Positions 2,978 through 36,385 of a stretch of 37,577 nucleotides of DNA are shown piece after piece. The translations under genes were made by a program, and so were the position numbers. Every line of letters begins with the position of its first letter. The stretch's first letter is position 1. The DNA comes from a virus (lineage: Duplodnaviria; Heunggongvirae; Uroviricota; Caudoviricetes), in the IMG/VR virus record IMGVR_UViG_2529292717_000013. The stretch is one strand, 5' to 3'. The notes below the pieces were generated by a model. It saw nothing but the letters and a program-made list of their open reading frames with translations. It made no database searches and was not told the origin of the DNA.

Positions 2978-3328
2978 ATGAAAAAAAACGCTAATAATCC
3001 ATACTCCAAATTTCGTAATGGCGTAGAACGCCATGTACACCACGTCGCTACCAGTGCATCACGTAGTAACAGTCGCTATAACCTGAACGAGACGCACGCA
3101 ACACCGGATGGCCACGCTGTAAAACAAATCGGCGAGCATGCCTGGCTGATTGAGAAAGCTGGAATCGTGGTCCACAAATGCCCACGCAATCCGTTTACCG
3201 GAAACCGCATTTTTGCTCTAAGCAGTGGCGACAATCAGTTCGGGCAGGATTTCACATTATACGAAGCACTTCGCACGGTTGATCGTCTGCTTCGCGGGCA
3301 AAGTTTTATTAAACAGGCTGATTTATAA
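2978..3328 (+). CDS. hypothetical early protein
   Basis: 116-aa ORF in the early operon. Confidence 0.5.
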   Translation: MKKNANNPYSKFRNGVERHVHHVATSASRSNSRYNLNETHATPDGHAVKQIGEHAWLIEKAGIVVHKCPRNPFTGNRIFALSSGDNQFGQDFTLYEALRTVDRLLRGQSFIKQADL

Positions 3329-3338
3329 CAGGTGCTTT

Positions 3339-3626
3339 ATGACCAAAGACCATGCACAAGGTGTATTTATCCGTTTTATTGATTTTCGCGGTGAACTGTT
3401 ATTACGTGCATCCGCTATTGACGGAGTGACTCCGGCGGGTAAAAACGGAGCCGACGAAGCCACTTACGTTTATCTGAACGGCACGCGACTGCTTGTGGAA
3501 CTTCCGTACCAGACCGTACGAGAAATCATTAGCGAAGCTGAAAAGGCACGCCAGGTTAATGGCGATGAACCCTATATCGAAATTATTTGTATGGATTCAG
3601 AAGCTGAAATACAGAAAGCAGATTAA
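3339..3626 (+). CDS. hypothetical early protein
   Basis: ATG at 3339 in frame with the track ORF 3225..3626; 95 aa. Confidence 0.5.
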   Translation: MTKDHAQGVFIRFIDFRGELLLRASAIDGVTPAGKNGADEATYVYLNGTRLLVELPYQTVREIISEAEKARQVNGDEPYIEIICMDSEAEIQKAD

Positions 3627-4818: not shown

Positions 4819-4940
4819 GAAACCAGAACATGCACACACAAAAAAACCGCTTGCCATGCCGCAATCAGTCAGGTTACATTTCCGCTGCACCTCATAAAAC
4901 GGGTGCCGGGTTTCGCAGCCCGCTGACAAACGTAGCGCAC

Positions 4941-4962
4941 AACCGCGCCAGCGGTTTTTTTG
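4941..4962 (+). terminator. candidate rho-independent terminator (AACCGC-GCCA-GCGGTT + T7)
   Basis: Stem-loop followed by a T-run, about 120 bp after the 99-aa ORF. Confidence 0.4.
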
Positions 4963-5140
4963 TGCGTACTGTATCGCCACGTCTTTTTCGCATCTGAATT
5001 ATGGTGGGGCGTACGGGGCCGACTTCGGTCGGGCCGGGTTCTGCGTTTGCCGGTACTGCGAACCTCGTACGTCTCGCCACCCACAGTTTCGCAGCTCTGG
5101 ATGGTGAGTTTTCACAACTTACACACGTAGAGGCCACACC

Positions 5141-5371
5141 ATGGCAAACCGCAAACAGCACCGCGCTATCGCGGAGCGTCGTCACATCCAGACTGAAATC
5201 AACCGCAGACTTTCCCGCGCATCACGCGTCGCGCAAATCATGCACATCAATATGCTGCATGAGCGCAGCCACGCACTATCAAACATTTATTCCGCCTCTG
5301 TTTTCAGCTATCTGGCGGATGATCTGCACGAGCTTCAACAGCTCATCCAGCAGCAAAACAAACTCCATTAA
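5141..5371 (+). CDS. hypothetical protein
   Basis: 76-aa ORF. Confidence 0.4.
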   Translation: MANRKQHRAIAERRHIQTEINRRLSRASRVAQIMHINMLHERSHALSNIYSASVFSYLADDLHELQQLIQQQNKLH

Positions 5372-5522
5372 TTCCTGTTCCGGGCCTTTCCTGCACCTTG
5401 CGGCGGGAGGCCTTCGCACATCTGTAACAAGAGGATTGCCGCAATGATTCTCGCCAACGACTTTCTTGAATACCTGCTCAACACAGAACGTGATCTTGCC
5501 GTCGCGTGCGTGACGTTATGAC

Positions 5523-5807
5523 ATGTACCTGAAATCCCTGCCTGTACCGCAGCTCGCTGACGGAAAGATTGTTATTGATGGTCGCTACATGATTGACAGC
5601 CACGAGGGAAATTACAGGCTTTACCGCATTGAAGGTGGCACCCCGTCCGTTATTGGCATTTACCAGCGCCCATCCTCTGCAATCGTCGATGTGATTGCCG
5701 ACAGCATCCGCATCACACATCGCCATGCCGACACAGAAGACACCGTGCTGGAAATTCAGCGGCTGGCTACAGTCTGCCGCGACACCCTGAATGGCATGAC
5801 GAAGTAA
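5523..5807 (+). CDS. hypothetical protein immediately upstream of gene A
   Basis: 94-aa ORF. Confidence 0.5.
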   Translation: MYLKSLPVPQLADGKIVIDGRYMIDSHEGNYRLYRIEGGTPSVIGIYQRPSSAIVDVIADSIRITHRHADTEDTVLEIQRLATVCRDTLNGMTK

Positions 5808-5813
5808 ATCACT

Positions 5814-8633
5814 ATGACGGCAGAGTACATCAGGGACTGGCAACAACCGCGCCACGCAGTGGGGCGTGAAGGAACGGGGATCCCCGCTCCTGAATCCGCG
5901 CTTTCCTCCTGGCTGGATGCCTACCGGGCAGAGAACGAGCGCCGCCAGGAAATGGCTGATGCGGCGTTCTCCGCCACGCCGCTGGGCAACCTGATTAATA
6001 AAAGCCTGGACGCACAGGAAAAACAGGACAAAACCATCACACTGGCAGGAGACGCCAGAAAACAGGCACGTGGCGCGGTGGATGAAGCCATGGCCTCGCT
6101 GCGCCTGCTGCCGTCCTATCTGCGCGATCCGCTTATTCGCCACCTCTCCTTCCTGCGCAAAAAACAGGAAGCCGATCGCCGGAAAGGCAAAAAGAGCTGG
6201 CAGGCTGAACGCTACGCGCGCGGGACCCTGCGCAAAATATTCGAACGTCTGGATCGCACTGACGGGCGCTGGCTGACACCGGGTTATCGCTCCCTTGCCG
6301 GGCGCGAACGCCTGGACGATTTGCTTTACCTGCCGCAGCTCAACAAGCACCAGATACAGACGCTGGCCACCATGACGGCGGCGATGTTCAGCAGCACCTT
6401 CGAAAAACTCTGCGATGGCTTTGGCGCGACTGATGGCGAGCTGACCATGGATGTAACGCTGAAGGCTTATCAGATGCTGGCCCGCATGGCGTTACACCTG
6501 CACGCCATGCCTCCACATTATGACGCACTGACAACAGACAAAGACCGGAGGAACGAACCGGACACGGAGCTGCTGCCGGGCGCAATCCTTCGCTTGACCT
6601 GTGCGGAATGGTGGAAACGCAAACTATGGCTGTTGCGTTGTGAGTGGCGGGAAGAACAACTCCGCGCCGCCTGTCTGGTTTCCAGAAAAACATCCCCCTA
6701 TCTGAGCCAGGACGCGTTAAGCGAGTTTCGCGCACAGCGCGAGAAAACACGCGATTTCCTGAAAAGTTTCATGCTGGAAAATGAAGACGGGTTCACGATT
6801 GATCTCGAGACGGTGTATTACGCGGGAGTAAGTAACCCGGTTCACCGTAAGGCAGAAATGATGGCCACCATGAAGGGGCTGGAACTTCTGGCCGAAGCCC
6901 GTGGCGACAAAGCGGTGTTTCTGACTGTCACCTGCCCGTCAAAATACCACGCCACAACAGAGAACGGTCATCCGAACCCCAAATGGAACGGGGCCACCAT
7001 GCGCGACTCCAGCGATTACCTGGTTAACACGTTTTTTGCGGCGGTCCGCAAAAAACTGAACCGCGACGGCCTGCGCTGGTATGGCATCCGCACGGTGGAG
7101 CCTCACCATGACGGCACTGTGCACTGGCATATGATGGTCTTTGCACATCCGGACGAGATTGAAACCATCGTGTCCCACGTCTGCGATATTGCCATTCAGG
7201 AGCCGCCACGAGCTGGGCGATGACATAACTCCGCGTTTTAAGGCGGAGTACGTGACGGCTCAAAAGGCACACCAACCAGCTACATCGCCACCTACATCGG
7301 AAAGAACCTGGACAGCCGCGCCGTGGATGGCATCGACCCGAAAACGGGCAAGCCACGCGTTGACCACGAAACCGGAAAATCAATGGCCGAGAGCGTGGAA
7401 CGCGCCATCGGCTGGGCGCGCCTTCACCGGGTCCGCCAGTTCCAGTTCTTTGGCATCCCCTCCCGTCAGGTGTGGCGTGAACTCCGCCGCCTTGCCAGCC
7501 AGATGGCACGCAACCCGGAAGGCCCGCAACGGCTGAAGGATGACGCAATGGATGCGGTACTCGCTGCCGCTGATGCAGGATGTTTTGCCACCTACATAGA
7601 GAAACAGGGCGGCGTACTTGTTCCACGCAAAGACTACCTGATTCGCACCGCCTACGACCTCGCCGATGAGCTGAACGATTACGGCGAACAGAGCGTACAG
7701 ATTTACGGGATCTGGTCACCACTCATCGGGGAATCCTCCCGTGTGTGCACGCATCCGGATAACTGGAAGCTGGTAAGACGCAAACCGGAAGCGGAAGACA
7801 GCGCCCGCGAAAATGGTTTTGACCTTCAGGGCGGCCCTGCCGCCCCTTGGACTCGTGGCAATAACTGTCCCCGTGTACAGGAAACAGGCAACAGCGGGAC
7901 AGAACAGTCGAAAGAACGGCCAGCACCGTGGCCGCAGCTTCCTGACGGCGTTGAAGTGAACGAATGGATGCGCTCACTGAAACGGCACGAACGCCGGGCG
8001 CTGATGCGTTCGCTTCGTGACAAACAGGTAAAAAACAGCAGTGATGAAATGCAGAGCTGGACACAGAGCCGCAAACAGCAGCGGCCTTTGCCTGATAACC
8101 ACGAATTACTCGCTAAAGAATGGCGGGAGTCTGCCGAATCTCTCGGCCTGCATATCGGTGAACAGCAGATGCAGCACCTGCTACGGGGCGGCAGCCTGTA
8201 CGTTGACGGCAGCATCATTGCACCGCAGGGATATGAAATTGTACGCAAACCGGATACCCGCCCGGACAGCCGAATCACGCAGCTCTGGCAGCACCTGAGC
8301 CGTAATCACGGCGTAAGCAGCACGGAGATCCGCCATAACCCGGTCGCCAGCTATCTGGCACAGCTGGGGGCATCAGACCCCGAAGCCGCCGCACGCCTGG
8401 CATCCGCACTTCAGCAGGATCAGAACACCATGAAAACACCCGTTACCGTGCTTTCTGACATGCTGCGCGCCATCCGCGACGCAGAGCACGCACAGAGAAT
8501 CAGTGAAACCACTGAACGCGCCAGCCGCAAAGCAGACCTGCTGCAGGGTGGCCTGACCAGTGGAAACAAAAAACAGACAGAAACGGGATCCACAAATCCC
8601 GTAAATGAGCAAAAAACGCGCCGCGATATATGA
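5814..8633 (+). pseudogene. A: replication initiation endonuclease A (rolling-circle initiator, GPA family); frame interrupted at about 7195-7270
   Basis: Track ORFs 5814..7223 and 7323..8633 are in the same frame, separated by in-frame TGA (7221) and TAA (7239), while the +1 frame is open across the gap. HWHMMVF and YIATYIGKNLD motifs present. Confidence 0.8.
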
Positions 8634-8678
8634 AGCGCGCACAAAACAGGCGAAAGCGGGATTTAAAAATCCCGTAAA
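8583..8678. promoter_or_regulatory. candidate ParR-binding site / parMR promoter region (two palindromes with ATCCCG half-sites)
   Basis: ACGGGAT-N6-ATCCCGT and CGGGATTT-AA-AAATCCCG; the motif AAATCCCGTAAA occurs twice; about 35 bp upstream of parM. Confidence 0.35.
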
Positions 8679-8709
8679 CGGTTAATTAACCAACATAAGG
8701 AAAATCGAC

Positions 8710-9669
8710 ATGAAAATTTGTATCGACGACGGCTCCACCAACATCAAGCTGGCATGGACTGAGAACGGCGAACGCCGCAACGCCATCAGCCCGAACAGCT
8801 TCAAGTCGGAATGGTCTGCGCCGTTCGGTGGCACGCATCCCGCGAACTACATGCTTGATGGCGTGCGCTATGGCTTTGATCCGGTCAGCGATCGTTTTGT
8901 CCAGACGACTGACACGCAATACCAGTACAGCGATGTGAATGTAATCGCCATTCATCACGCGCTGGTCAAATCAGGCATCACGCCACAGGAGGTGGATGTG
9001 GTTGTCACCCTGCCACTGAGCGAGTATTTCGACACAAACGCACAGCCGGACATGGCCAACATCAACCGCAAAAAAGCGAACGTCATGCGCCCGGTGGAGT
9101 ACCAGAACGGCGAAGCATTCACTATCCGTAACGTACGGGTTATGCCTGAATCCATTCCGGCTGGCTTTAAGGCACTGGCTGACATGAGTCCGTTTGAATC
9201 CCTGCTGATTGTGGATTTGGGCGGAACCACGCTGGATGTGGCAAAGGTTCAGGGGCAGCTGGCAGGTATCAGCCAGGTGTTTTGCGATCCAAACGTAGGC
9301 GTTTCCCTGATGGCTGATGCCGTGCTGTCGGTGATGGCCACTAACGGTATGCGTACCAGTCACCACATCGCCAATACCATTATTGAGCACCGTCACGATG
9401 AAGCCTGGCTGCGCCAGCACATTCACAATGACGCGCATTACAACAGCCTGATGGCGGTTATTCGTGAAAAGGAGGAGACACTGAAACAACGAGTGATCCG
9501 CGCGCTGGCGGGTTTTTCCGGTTACGGGCGGGTGATGGTTGTCGGTGGAGGGGCGGAGATTGTGGCACCCGCTATCCGCGAAGCCTGCGGAGTTAATGCG
9601 ACTTTCATCGCGGACGGGGTGCCACAGTTTGCTCTGGTTAATGGGCTGTACGCAATGAACAAGGAGTAA
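8710..9669 (+). CDS. parM: actin-like segregation ATPase ParM/StbA
   Basis: 319 aa; N-terminus MKICIDDGSTNIKLAW and downstream blocks closely resemble plasmid R1 ParM as remembered. Confidence 0.85.
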   Translation: MKICIDDGSTNIKLAWTENGERRNAISPNSFKSEWSAPFGGTHPANYMLDGVRYGFDPVSDRFVQTTDTQYQYSDVNVIAIHHALVKSGITPQEVDVVVTLPLSEYFDTNAQPDMANINRKKANVMRPVEYQNGEAFTIRNVRVMPESIPAGFKALADMSPFESLLIVDLGGTTLDVAKVQGQLAGISQVFCDPNVGVSLMADAVLSVMATNGMRTSHHIANTIIEHRHDEAWLRQHIHNDAHYNSLMAVIREKEETLKQRVIRALAGFSGYGRVMVVGGGAEIVAPAIREACGVNATFIADGVPQFALVNGLYAMNKE

Positions 9670-9673
9670 ACCA

Positions 9674-9985
9674 ATGACGACACCAACCAGAAGAATAAGT
9701 TTCTATCTGAAGCCAGCTGCCGTCAAGAACGAAGGAGAAGCATGCGCATGGCTGGACAGCCTTACACCAGAAGCCCGCAAAAGCGGCCAACGCGTGGCTT
9801 TTCTGGCCGGGCTGGCACTTCTGAAGACGAATCCGGCAGAGGCTTACCGACTGGCCGCATGGGCTGATGATGAGATGTTACCTGTGACACAAATCAGCTC
9901 AAAAAAGTTTGAAGCACAGTCTGCACCAGTGGCTAAGATAACCAGCCAGATGGCTGGGAATATCCGGGCGTTATTTCCTGGGTAA
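9674..9985 (+). CDS. parR: ParR/StbB-like centromere-binding protein
   Basis: 103 aa; RRISFYLKP...AFLAGLALLKTNP...IRALFP resembles R1 ParR; immediately after parM. Confidence 0.7.
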   Translation: MTTPTRRISFYLKPAAVKNEGEACAWLDSLTPEARKSGQRVAFLAGLALLKTNPAEAYRLAAWADDEMLPVTQISSKKFEAQSAPVAKITSQMAGNIRALFPG

Positions 9986-10105
9986 AAGCATCTGCGCGAA
10001 AAATGCTCACATTTATAGAAACAGTATCATTCCATTTGGCGCACTTACTTCAATAATCGATCTGTTAAACAAATAGATTGTCTATTATCTATCGATTAAA
10101 ACGAT

Positions 10106-10170
10106 CAATTATCTTGACAGTAATGTGCCTTTTTGTAAGATCGTTCGCATTGTGAGCGACAAGATAATTG
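10106..10170 (+). promoter_or_regulatory. candidate promoter (TTGACA-N16-TAAGAT) bracketed by an 11-bp inverted repeat CAATTATCTTG / CAAGATAATTG
   Basis: Read directly; the -35 hexamer overlaps the left arm. Confidence 0.35.
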
Positions 10171-10247
10171 CGCGGCATTGTCCATGCAAAACGCCCCAAT
10201 AGCAGCAACTATTGGGGCGTAGAACTCGGTCGGACTCACTTAACCTG

Positions 10248-10331
10248 ATATGCGTGCCTTCCGAAGTAAATCAAAATGTGCGTCGTATATTTTATTGCTT
10301 ACACGCACCTCTGTAAAGGCACGCATATTTT
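10248..10331 (+). terminator. large hairpin (13-bp perfect inverted repeat ATATGCGTGCCTT, 55-nt spacer with nested inverted repeat) followed by a T-run; candidate attenuator in the ORF89 leader
   Basis: Inverted repeat arms at about 10248-10260 and 10316-10328, then TTTTT; ends about 20 bp before the ORF89 start. Confidence 0.4.
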
Positions 10332-10349
10332 TCCTATGAGGTAAATAAA

Positions 10350-10619
10350 GTGCGGGCTAAAACAGGTATTTGCAAGAATCCTCATCGTTATAACCCAACA
10401 TTTCTGTCTCTCCCTGAATATCAAGGACAAGAAGGTCGGCACAAATGCGCTGCCTGTGCTTTTGAGCTAGGCATAAAAGATGCGCTTGAAGGACGCGCTA
10501 TGGCTCAGAATGATTTAGTTTTAGCTAACATTCCGTTTAGCCAGGCTGGAACTGTAAGGCACAGAGATGCTTATGAAGCATATGTTCGTGGTTGGCGATT
10601 AATACACAGCAACAATTGA
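10350..10619 (+). CDS. hypothetical Cys/His-rich small protein (hotspot cargo)
   Basis: 89-aa ORF with GTG start and GAGG RBS; CKNPHRY...HKCAACAFE suggests metal binding. Confidence 0.5.
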   Translation: MRAKTGICKNPHRYNPTFLSLPEYQGQEGRHKCAACAFELGIKDALEGRAMAQNDLVLANIPFSQAGTVRHRDAYEAYVRGWRLIHSNN

Positions 10620-10627
10620 TATTTTTG

Positions 10628-10651
10628 AAGCGCCGATAAGGCGCTTTTTTT
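10628..10651 (+). terminator. rho-independent terminator (AAGCGCC-GATAA-GGCGCTT + T-run)
   Basis: Directly after the ORF89 stop. Confidence 0.6.
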
Positions 10652-11179
10652 GTTTGCACGATAGTGCACAAGTTTGCACAATTTTTTTGAACGACTTTTT
10701 GTACTTCCGGCCCGCGTGGCGGCTGGATCCGTCAAGGATCCGTACGTGCACAAAAAACGCGTTTTTTCTACGCGCAGGTGACGGGGGAACAGCCCGCGTT
10801 TCAGGGGGTAAATAGCATTCCCTGAACGATGTCGCAGAGACACAACAGAATGGCCATATTTCTCACGCTGAGCATGAAAAAGGCGTGAGGGCTTTTGATT
10901 TGATGGGGTGAAAGGTAAGGCCGTCAAAATCGCACTGAGGCAGCGAGAACATACAGTCAACGTGGTGGGATTGCGTAAGAGTCTGACCGTCGATGGTGGC
11001 GATAAACTGGAAGGCGTCGTGAAATTATCTGATTGATACAGGAGCTGGAGAGTCGGGGCATAAATTTTTTATGCCCCGGCGAAGCAGCAGACAAGCGAAG
11101 CGCGTCAGCGATACGGCACCTTGCCGACCATACTTCGTAAGTGCAAAATACGAGCAAAGAAATCAATGGAGGCTGTCTT

Positions 11180-11704
11180 ATGGTCATTAATTACAAGCAG
11201 TTAAGAGAAAAACGGGAGCAGGTAAAGGAGAGCTTTCGCCGCAATGAAGATCTGACCCCGCTTGTACGCCTTGCCCAGGGCATTGTTGATGCTTATGAAA
11301 TCTCGCTGGAGCTGCCATCACAGACCTGGACAGATAGCGACGGTAATCGCCAGCATTACGTTTCATGCGGACTGGAAGCAGCCGAAGGATTTCGCAGAAT
11401 GCCTTTATCTCAGATCCCTGCCGCTACCCCCAAAGCAAGGGGCGGCAATGATGAGCGAAAACTGATTTTCAGCATTGAGACAGTGGTTGACGACACACCT
11501 GGCGAAGTCGCCTTCGTGCATACTCCTCTTTCGATCGCAATGTATAACGATGAAATACAGGTTCGCGTTAATAATAATATCGTGCCACTTAAAGAAGGTA
11601 ATTCACCCTACACCACCGTTTGTGAAGCCATTCAATATTACGTTTTCTCTGAAATTGATAATCTCAAGCCTGACGGCACCCAGAAAATGGTTCAGCTCTG
11701 GTAA
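11180..11704 (+). CDS. hypothetical protein (hotspot cargo)
   Basis: 174 aa from the ATG at 11180 with a GGAGG RBS 7 nt upstream; no family recognised. Confidence 0.5.
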   Translation: MVINYKQLREKREQVKESFRRNEDLTPLVRLAQGIVDAYEISLELPSQTWTDSDGNRQHYVSCGLEAAEGFRRMPLSQIPAATPKARGGNDERKLIFSIETVVDDTPGEVAFVHTPLSIAMYNDEIQVRVNNNIVPLKEGNSPYTTVCEAIQYYVFSEIDNLKPDGTQKMVQLW

Positions 11705-36342: not shown

Positions 36343-36385
36343 CAGATGACAAAACGCCCGTGAAAACGGGCGTTTTGTCATCTGT
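36343..36385. terminator. long perfect hairpin (19-bp stem, GAAA loop), probable bidirectional terminator
   Basis: CAGATGACAAAACGCCCGT-GAAA-ACGGGCGTTTTGTCATCTG. Confidence 0.5.

Follow-up and report, generated by a model that had tools for sequence, protein, structure and literature searches.

The window analysed here, a stretch of 37,577 nucleotides (IMGVR_UViG_2529292717_000013), is a P88-like (Xuanwuvirus, P2-like) prophage of Escherichia coli, and this report concerns a short unit within it, at 10100-10650, in which a promoter and a long structured leader precede a gene for a protein of 89 amino acids (aa). As part of the model of its control developed below, and with the same somewhat better than even confidence, we regard this segment as a self-contained accessory-gene ('moron') cassette of the P2-like prophage. 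The locus reads, in order, a replication gene, a ParM/StbB partition pair (parMR), the cassette, and then the portal and terminase genes, and the position of the cassette is the cargo hotspot of P2. A 711-bp region is found at 95-99.9% identity in 166 of 5426 complete E. coli genomes and also in phage 520873, and most of the top-listed E. coli records have no gene annotated beneath the match. One lysogen that carries this prophage is ETEC H10407. In published surveys of the P2 defence hotspot, the cargo of the window figures only as 'hypothetical' (Rousset et al., supplementary table).

A promoter scan of the plus strand gave a sigma-70-type sense promoter consisting of TTGACA (10114-10119), a 16-bp spacer and TAAGAT (10136-10141), with 10 of 12 matches to the consensus, which bears out the sigma70-like promoter proposed in an earlier reading of this DNA (hereafter the original prediction). 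Homologous sense promoters were called in the loci L135, L041 and L037. Transcription is predicted to start near 10148-10150, which would give the mRNA a structured 5' untranslated leader of about 200 nt (10148-10349). The Shine-Dalgarno (SD) sequence GAGG (10338-10341) stands 8 nt before the GTG start codon at 10350 of the cargo gene (10350-10619, plus strand), a member of the phrog_3941 family, and the cassette is closed by an intrinsic terminator with a stem at 10627-10647 and a T-run, extending to 10652.

The segment is unusually rich in inverted repeats. Perfect inverted repeats of at least 11 bp with a gap of no more than 60 are present in 8 distinct cases in the 37,577 bp, and 3 of these fall within the ~230 nt of 10106-10328; dinucleotide shuffles gave a mean of 0.77 such 11-mers per window, and the clustering is not a product of chance. 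An 11-bp perfect inverted repeat, also proposed earlier, brackets the promoter (CAATTATCTTG at 10106-10116 and CAAGATAATTG at 10160-10170). Further downstream lies a GC-rich hairpin, P2, with a 12-bp stem (10191-10202 / 10209-10220) and a loop of 6, beside which an A-run on the plus strand (10188-10191) places a U-run on the minus strand. It is followed by a large hairpin, P3, with a basal perfect stem of 13 bp (10248-10260 / 10316-10328), an inner hairpin (10278-10283 / 10302-10307) and a GTAAAG at 10313-10318 that is invariant; a run of T (10329-10332) comes directly after it. The original prediction had picked out both hairpins, the first by its minus-strand U-run (10191-10220) and the second by its 13-bp repeat and the T-run upstream of the start codon (10248-10328), and both are present. 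Compared with shuffled sequence, the leader folds with a z-score of -3.7 on the plus strand, and the minus strand of 10180-10285 with a z-score of -3.4.

Conservation of the leader and a candidate antisense promoter

Phage homologues of the gene from Providencia, Proteus, Gilliamella and Pantoea are preceded by leaders in which the elements follow in the same order and which share little sequence with that of E. coli. From 5' to 3' this order comprises a GATC, the promoter, a hairpin P1 located 5'-terminally in the transcript, a segment rich in purines, AAGGGAAA (in E. coli GCAAAA), P2, an A-rich linker, P3, the SD sequence and the start codon. Scanning viral contigs with the conserved promoter pattern returned 34 true instances, a second scan with a pattern of the P3 region returned 36 contigs, and the Pantoea-like type of leader is present in 21 E. 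coli genomes. Cassette leaders are found in E. coli, Salmonella, Providencia/Proteus, Pantoea-like and Gilliamella phages. The cargo behind the leader is mostly the Zn-motif protein, with a 233-aa Bro-N protein and an 87-aa DUF1883 protein as alternatives; since unrelated cargo stands behind the same leader, the leader is a cargo-independent control module. When two Providencia loci were compared by eye, the leader had changed less than the coding sequence. The phage-borne gene is solitary and occupies cargo positions, namely the P2 hotspot in this window, in Providencia lambdoid phages the interval, on the opposite strand, that separates Q from the lysis genes, in E. coli lambdoid prophages the nin region, and in BIS08P22, a P22-like phage of Salmonella, the place immediately following the c2 repressor gene. 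In the last of these, an annotated 'hypothetical protein' after c2 (UWV16653.1, L238 3165-3401) overlaps the cassette promoter and leader (3270-3495) and is probably not a gene.

In each lineage the minimum-energy folds contain P1, P2 and P3. Four lineages preserve the basal stem of P3 with differing sequences, its 5' and 3' arms being AUAUGCGUGCCUU and AAGGCACGCAUAU in E. coli, GAAUGUUUU and AAAGCGUUC in the Pantoea-like lineage, CAGGGUUUACA and UGUAAAGCCCUG in Providencia, and GGGCUUUAU and GUAAAGCCC in Gilliamella. Within the Pantoea-like lineage 82.9% of the alignment cells are paired, as against 32-48% with the partners slid, 13 pairs have changed on both sides, and the covariation score of 0.183 (0.120 in shuffles) was reached by 0 of 500 shuffles. 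An alignment of three lineages fitted to the structure model gave 94.5% of cells paired, 12 of 25 pairs changed on both sides and a covariation score of 0.319 versus 0.107, figures that are an upper view because such a fit favours structure. The stem of P2 covaries across lineages as well. RNAalifold, run on the MAFFT alignment of all lineages, paired two invariant GATCs with the arms out of register, and per-lineage and model-fitted alignments were used instead; from the 36 copies of E. coli type no covariation could be obtained because they are almost invariant. U-G pairs are frequent in the basal stem of P3 and would be A-C mismatches on the other strand, and P3 is therefore a structure of the sense RNA.

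Inside P3 the scan also called a promoter on the minus strand, TTTACA, 17 bp and TAAAAT at 10317..10289, which the original prediction had missed; its -10 hexamer (10289-10294) lies in the loop of P3. An antisense promoter was likewise called in the Gilliamella and Providencia loci, and a P22-like phage of Salmonella and lambdoid prophages of E. coli have it too. In all 31 distinct leaders, drawn from four lineages, the minus strand reads TTTAC[A/T] and TA[A/G]N[A/C]T with exactly 17 bp between them; a promoter convergent with the sense promoter and located within the 5' region of its target, as is characteristic of cis-antisense regulators, is thus found in 31 of 31 leaders. In an alignment of 30 leaders the mean column identity is 62%, and the invariant columns include GTAAAG (the -35) and positions 1, 2 and 6 of the -10, with the bases between them varying.

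From the promoter, the fold and the conservation we predict a cis-antisense RNA of about 95 nt on the minus strand (~10283-10187), probably made from the promoter inside P3 and starting, also inside P3, near 10281-10283. Its 5' part would be the complement of the P3 5' arm and of the linker, and its 3' part would be the hairpin P2', the minus-strand form of P2; folding gives it a weakly structured 5' half and a strong 3' hairpin. The U-run of P2 lies on the minus strand in every lineage (UUUUG, UUUCCCUUAU and UUUUCCUUUUGUG). P2 is accordingly positioned as the predicted terminator of the antisense RNA, a role that would explain both the minus-strand U-run, noted in the original prediction, and the GGGAAA that is conserved 5' of P2 in the sense direction. 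The predicted RNA overlaps neither the SD sequence (10338-10341) nor the start codon.

How such an RNA might act on translation is suggested by folding the leaders without the 5' arm of P3, in which case the 3' arm pairs with the translation start region. In the window, the fold without the 5' arm and the duplex energy place this switch segment at 10318-10326 (GGCACGCAU, plus strand), pairing with 10350-10358 (GUGCGGGCU) in a helix that lies over the start codon and lacks a U-run. The partner of the SD sequence and the AUG in Providencia is GUGUAAAGCCCUG, and in Gilliamella an extended 3' arm pairs with AGAGG...AUG. Of 16 leaders, 10 form a duplex between the start region and the arm, or the segment just after it, that is better than with 500 shuffled versions of the arm (p <= 0.014). 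Several leaders have a P3 5' arm that is a copy of the start region (GGCUAGAAUG versus GGCAUUAGAAUG), which is the classic arrangement of an anti-anti-ribosome-binding site. Mutually exclusive leader structures, of the kind known from pT181 and pIP501, are thereby significant in those 10 of the 16 leaders and marginal in the window.

A transcription attenuator, in which P3 and the UUUUU after it would terminate most sense transcripts and a factor would permit read-through by preventing P3, is in our judgement unlikely, although it survives better than the other rivals. It would account for the 13-bp perfect stem that runs directly into T 10329-10332, and the Providencia and Proteus leaders have, immediately ahead of the start codon, a small hairpin, U-rich in its tail, that was called terminator-like. 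The T-run after P3, however, is confined to the E. coli and Providencia versions and absent from the Pantoea-like and Gilliamella leaders, so a conserved GC-rich stem with a U-run is not found; the base of the P3 stem is AU-rich, and its 'loop' amounts to 55 nt. In addition, antisense pairing would here both antiterminate and occlude the start, which is contradictory. The original prediction had named attenuation or antisense control; the minus-strand promoter in 31 of 31 leaders supports the latter, and termination at the large hairpin is not conserved.

Slightly less probable than attenuation, in our view, is a switch in the sense RNA that responds to a protein, a ligand or temperature and involves no antisense RNA, the promoter-like invariants then being constraints on the RNA itself. 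The covariation of P1-P3 as sense-strand structures and the very strong conservation of the P3 region inside lineages would both be expected of it. Against this stands the fact that the columns invariant across lineages are exactly those of a -35 and of -10 positions 1, 2 and 6 at a distance of 17 bp; moreover, the U-run of P2 is on the minus strand, and no Rfam family matches.

Sites for Dam methylation form a second conserved feature of the cassette. One GATC (10103-10106) lies 7 nt upstream of the -35 hexamer in the window, and every leader found, in all lineages, has one at the corresponding distance of 6-7 nt; all 10 leaders recovered with a pattern that did not contain this upstream GATC still keep it. 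In 9 of these 10 the -10 hexamer reads TAGGATC, similar to the TAAGATC of the window, in which a second GATC (10139-10142) overlaps the last three bases of the -10, and the TAnGATC arrangement is present in many but not all of the other leaders. Three GATCs fall within 84 nt at the cassette, compared with 2.4 per kb across the window. GATC-centred palindromes (GAGATCTC and GTGATCAC) also occur in P3 of three lineages, near the antisense start. GATCs beside or within promoter hexamers are the arrangement of Dam-regulated promoters of the IS10 pIN and finP type and, because of the analogy with these two, the conserved sites suggest a Dam-sensitive sense promoter and hence a second control at the level of DNA.

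The same sites lend themselves to a purely DNA-level switch, in which a repressor, or a protein sensitive to methylation, would bind the repeats and GATCs, the promoter being phase-variable or under Dam-dependent epigenetic control, and the hairpins would be by-products of palindromic operators. Besides the invariant GATC upstream of the -35, the GATC overlapping the -10 and the palindromes in P3 of three lineages, it can draw on three copies of TCWATTATCT that flank the sense promoter within 10081-10171 (at 10081 and 10105 direct, at 10162 inverted). Yet the stems change in sequence and keep their pairing, and G-U pairs in the sense RNA would be senseless for a protein site on duplex DNA. The 11-bp repeat and the TCWATTATCT copies, moreover, are specific to the E. 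coli lineage and absent from the other leader lineages; the 'operator' of the original prediction is present as a repeat but is not conserved, and it could be a lineage-specific protein site. We consider a DNA-level switch improbable as a replacement for the RNA model, with which it is compatible and which it need not displace.

The 89-aa protein and the surroundings of the cassette

The 89-aa open reading frame (ORF) matches phrog_3941 with E = 6.3e-49, residues 4-89 covering profile positions 1-86 of 86. A word-indexed protein search returned near-identical proteins only, and the family was found by an exhaustive search, which gave 172 cluster representatives, mostly of 80-100 aa. With 3 Cys and 4 His the protein is hardly the 'Cys/His-rich' product that the original prediction described; what holds is that C8, H12, H31, C33 and C36 are invariant or nearly so. 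C8 and H12 are invariant in the family together with R30, G41, Q65 and R70, and H31, C33 and C36 are nearly invariant, so that the motif reads C-x3-H...H-x-C-x2-C and looks like a metal site. The family alignment also contains two half-repeats, LPxxQGxxGRHKCxxCA[YF]ExG and LPxSQAGxxRH[KR]xxxxAYxxGY. The predicted structure (pLDDT 91.7) gave no fold match, Pfam gave no helix-turn-helix (HTH) family for the protein, and PADLOC gave no match to it. Weak, sub-threshold Pfam matches link five family members with ribosome modulation factor (the best at E = 0.0016) and three with Phage_186_Fil, and a phage 'ribosome modulation factor' is among the non-significant BFVD matches of the predicted structure; the matches to ribosome modulation factor may reflect only a shared AYxxGYxxG helix motif.

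The domain is fused to NOV_C nucleases (which match the PADLOC candidate defence families PDC-S36 and PD-T4-1), an HNH nuclease, DndB/DpdB-like proteins and a WYL protein (fusion proteins P0065, P0068, P0076, P0047 and P0020). It is N-terminal in the NOV_C and HNH nucleases, sometimes in two tandem copies, and C-terminal in the DpdB/DndB-like and WYL proteins, and these fusions suggest a module for the recognition of DNA or of its modification. Across 80 genome loci representing many phyla, no neighbours recur except restriction-modification (R-M) genes, which encode a D12-class adenine methylase, the DpnII endonuclease, an N6_N4 methylase, PDDEXK_11 and a type II endonuclease; the D12/DpnII gene set is a DpnII (GATC) cassette. 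A D12-methylase/DpnII cluster lies beside the small gene in 38 of 81 loci, and the top Pfam families among 112 neighbour proteins are D12 methylase (11), N6_N4 methylase (8), PDDEXK_11 (7) and DpnII (6). Loci outside phages in which the gene is embedded in an R-M operon include L050 (2731-3252), L055, L056, L075, L086-L091 and L102, where it is accompanied by a D12 methylase together with PDDEXK_11, DpnII or a type II endonuclease of 425 aa. In one Moraxella locus the gene immediately before it is HTH_3 controller-like.

A type I toxin-antitoxin or abortive-infection system, with the 89-aa protein as the toxin and the antisense RNA as its antitoxin, appears to us as improbable as the DNA-level switch. 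The prediction of a cis-antisense RNA, the location in the P2 defence hotspot and the fusion of domain relatives to candidate defence nucleases (PDC-S36, PD-T4-1-like and HNH) would all fit it, but no conserved small (hydrophobic) peptide ORF exists on either strand of the leader, the same leader drives the Bro-N and DUF1883 genes, the 89-aa product is of a soluble type and unmatched in PADLOC, and the protein is an ordinary operon member of R-M loci in many bacteria. The proposed tight control and the hotspot position would still be compatible with a defence or toxic role. Two further candidates were rejected, a leader peptide because the leaders have no conserved small ORF and a retron-like non-coding RNA because no reverse transcriptase was identified among the genes examined around the locus.

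The cassette is adjoined by a 187-aa ORF (11141-11704, plus strand) of phrog_5091, a family of unassigned function, which has no Pfam or PADLOC match. Some relatives (E2855) have it, and phage 520873 lacks it but keeps the cassette; the cassette therefore stands alone, a two-gene system with this ORF was rejected on the same ground, and the ORF is another item of hotspot cargo, independent of the first. Directly after the cassette terminator (10628-10700), similarity to other P2/P88-like phages restarts. The linear genome record of Xuanwuvirus P884B11 stops at the base that matches 10699 of the window, which puts the cassette probably no more than about 100-600 bp from the cos end of virion DNA.

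Upstream, genes for ParM (StbA) and a StbB/ParR-like partition protein lie at 8710-9985 inside the P2-like prophage, and AAATCCCGTAAA occurs twice just upstream of parM (8596-8607 and 8668-8679), where the pair may be the centromere. The idea that the repeats of the cassette are the parC centromere of ParMR was rejected, as TCWATTATCT is not found upstream of parM and other repeats are. The gpA-like replication gene is in two plus-strand ORFs, one of 469 aa with a Phage_GPA domain (5814-7223) and one of 436 aa (7323-8633), the second of which matches the C-terminal half of the phrog_91 and phrog_6857 profiles (852-855 positions). It is annotated as three coding sequences in phage 520873 and labelled a pseudogene in one E. 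coli genome, and the split may reflect a pseudogene, a frameshift or an insertion. In the early region, Rfam gave two gathering-level matches in tandem on the plus strand, isrK (4887-4961, 69.6 bits) and the C4 antisense RNA (4997-5084, 80.4 bits), which add to the prophage another kind of phage regulatory RNA, one already known; the ORFs just 3' of them (5001-5447 and 5523-5807) have no Pfam family. Apart from the leader repeats, the strongest inverted repeat of the window is a long perfect one at 36343-36384, composed of overlapping 13-mers with arms of ~19 nt or more and a short gap.

Proposed control of the cargo

From the elements described above we infer an antisense RNA, the direction of its effect and a role for Dam, and we favour, again at somewhat better than even confidence, a conserved leader/antisense module that controls its cargo through a sense leader, a cis-antisense RNA of about 95 nt, occlusion of the start site and possibly Dam methylation. 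The sigma-70 promoter at 10114-10141 would produce an mRNA whose leader of about 200 nt folds into P2 and P3, and the convergent minus-strand promoter inside P3 (10317..10289) would produce the antisense RNA, which would cross the 5' arm of P3 and the linker and end at the P2 hairpin and its U-run (~10187). Without the antisense RNA, the arms of P3 would pair with each other and leave the ribosome-binding and start region free. Pairing with the antisense RNA would take up the 5' arm of P3, the 3' arm (10318-10326) would then be able to pair with 10350-10358, and translation would be blocked; the duplex of antisense RNA and leader would probably also be exposed to RNase III. Dam methylation of the GATCs by the -35 and in the -10 might act as the second control. 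Under both controls the cargo would be silent in an established, fully methylated lysogen and could be expressed from newly arrived or newly replicated DNA, and a cassette on superinfecting relatives would be silenced as well. Such timing would suit cargo of an antirepressor type or of an anti-restriction or defence type.

A more far-reaching version of this model can be offered only tentatively, although we rate it above any of the rivals. It envisages a portable 'double-lock' cassette that joins Dam-sensitive promoters to a three-part cis-antisense switch, would time its cargo (the Zn-motif protein, Bro-N antirepressor-like proteins or DUF1883) to unmethylated or newly replicated phage DNA and would act in trans to silence the cassette on superinfecting relatives; the cargo met most often would be a new domain for recognizing DNA or its modification, derived from DpnII-type R-M systems and PDC-S36-like nucleases and acting on GATC methylation or restriction.

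Several observations weigh against the leader/antisense model or against the inclusion of the E. coli leader in it. The weakest point is the tails of the antisense terminator, which are short (3-4 U, followed by C or G) and were missed by the terminator scan. The duplex of arm and start region in the window, at -11.2 kcal/mol versus -7.6 +/- 2.0 kcal/mol for the shuffled arm, is marginal (p about 0.06). In the Pantoea-like lineage a separate hairpin beside P3 holds the SD sequence even when P3 is intact, so that these leaders may be off by default. No leader is more diverged than that of E. coli: an nhmmer profile of the other leaders did not detect it, and a covariance model of the Pantoea-like leaders (R1), whose only match in the whole window is at 10181-10263 on the plus strand (E = 0.0019), aligns the P2 part only. 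The P3 of E. coli also has no counterpart of the GATC that is invariant in other lineages, and the fitted cross-lineage alignment, as stated above, leans towards structure. The membership of the E. coli leader is argued mainly from the shared cargo family, the order and spacing of the elements, the arrangement of GATC to -35, and the antisense promoter based on GTAAAG. Nevertheless, none of the rivals explains the exact promoter invariants together with the sense-strand covariation as well as the leader/antisense model does.

The element is absent from Rfam, has a clear sequence signature and a proposed mechanism that lends itself to testing, and is conserved in no fewer than five bacterial genera and in phages of three types (P2-like, lambdoid and P22-like). 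Its presence marks genes over which phages exercise unusually tight control and, since the element is independent of the cargo, it could be used to find new antirepressors, anti-restriction factors or defence factors. Its main cargo family is widespread and uncharacterised, and is tied to GATC-type R-M systems and candidate defence nucleases. If the GATC sites matter, the cassette would be a phage example of combined epigenetic and antisense control, as in IS10 and F-like plasmids.

Comparison with known systems

The closest parallels are found among transposons and plasmids. In the IS10/Tn10 transposase gene, pIN and RNA-IN are opposed by pOUT and RNA-OUT, pIN is in addition subject to Dam methylation, and RNA-OUT pairs directly with the 5' end and ribosome-binding site of RNA-IN. 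The cassette resembles IS10 in its convergent sense and antisense promoters, in a short antisense RNA (stable in IS10) that would limit translation of a near-silent gene, and in a GATC in the sense -10 region through which expression would be tied to the methylation state of the DNA. It differs in that the antisense overlap would end about 55 nt upstream of the SD sequence and act through a structural switch; the RNA-OUT model of Rfam has no match at the leader. FinP of F-like plasmids covers the ribosome-binding site of traJ and needs FinO, and transcription of finP is Dam-dependent; an antisense RNA directed against a structured 5' leader and, as proposed here, a Dam-sensitive promoter are shared with this system. 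Neither IS10 nor FinP has a sequence relationship to the leader.

The rep genes of pT181, pIP501 and pAMbeta1 are governed by countertranscript-driven attenuation, in which the inhibitory hairpin is a true terminator. As in these plasmids, the antisense RNA predicted here is complementary to the leader well upstream of the ribosome-binding site and its binding would free an inhibitory segment (preemptor versus inhibitor), but the inhibitory structure does not appear to be a conserved terminator, a terminator-like hairpin being called in the Providencia/Proteus leaders only, and the context is a phage accessory gene instead of a replicon. The Rfam model ctRNA_pGA1 matches weakly (22 bits versus a threshold of 45), in the terminator hairpin only.

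Among phages, the RNAs of secondary immunity (immI), sar/ant in P22 and c4/icd-ant in P1 and P7, control antirepressors; c4 is a processed sense RNA, and sar overlaps the ribosome-binding site of ant directly. The proposed module would share with them a small phage RNA that keeps an accessory gene off in the lysogen, and one of its alternative cargoes is a Bro-N protein, the domain family of many antirepressors. The sar family itself (RF00262) reaches 22 bits versus a gathering threshold of 43 and matches the terminator hairpin only, and C4 (RF01695) gives nothing at 10050-10700 even at E values up to 10, its sole match being that at 4997-5084.

On the side of the protein, the small gene is encoded within or at the head of R-M operons, as are those of R-M controller (C) proteins. 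Unlike C proteins, the 89-aa product has a Cys/His motif and no HTH, and the domain also serves as the N-terminal module of nucleases, fusions that point to a DNA- or modification-recognition domain rather than to a classical C protein.

Searches of Rfam at gathering and permissive thresholds gave no family for the leader beyond the sub-threshold sar and ctRNA terminator parts, and in the literature searched, including the P2-hotspot papers that were checked, neither the RNA nor the protein is described. Because it has no Rfam match, because the predicted antisense RNA does not overlap the ribosome-binding site and because the inhibitory structure does not appear to be a conserved terminator, the module belongs to none of the IS10, FinP, pT181-type and sar/c4 systems. 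We regard it as a new RNA family with a proposed mechanism of a type familiar from them, carried by phages as a portable cassette whose uncharacterised cargo family is linked to GATC R-M.

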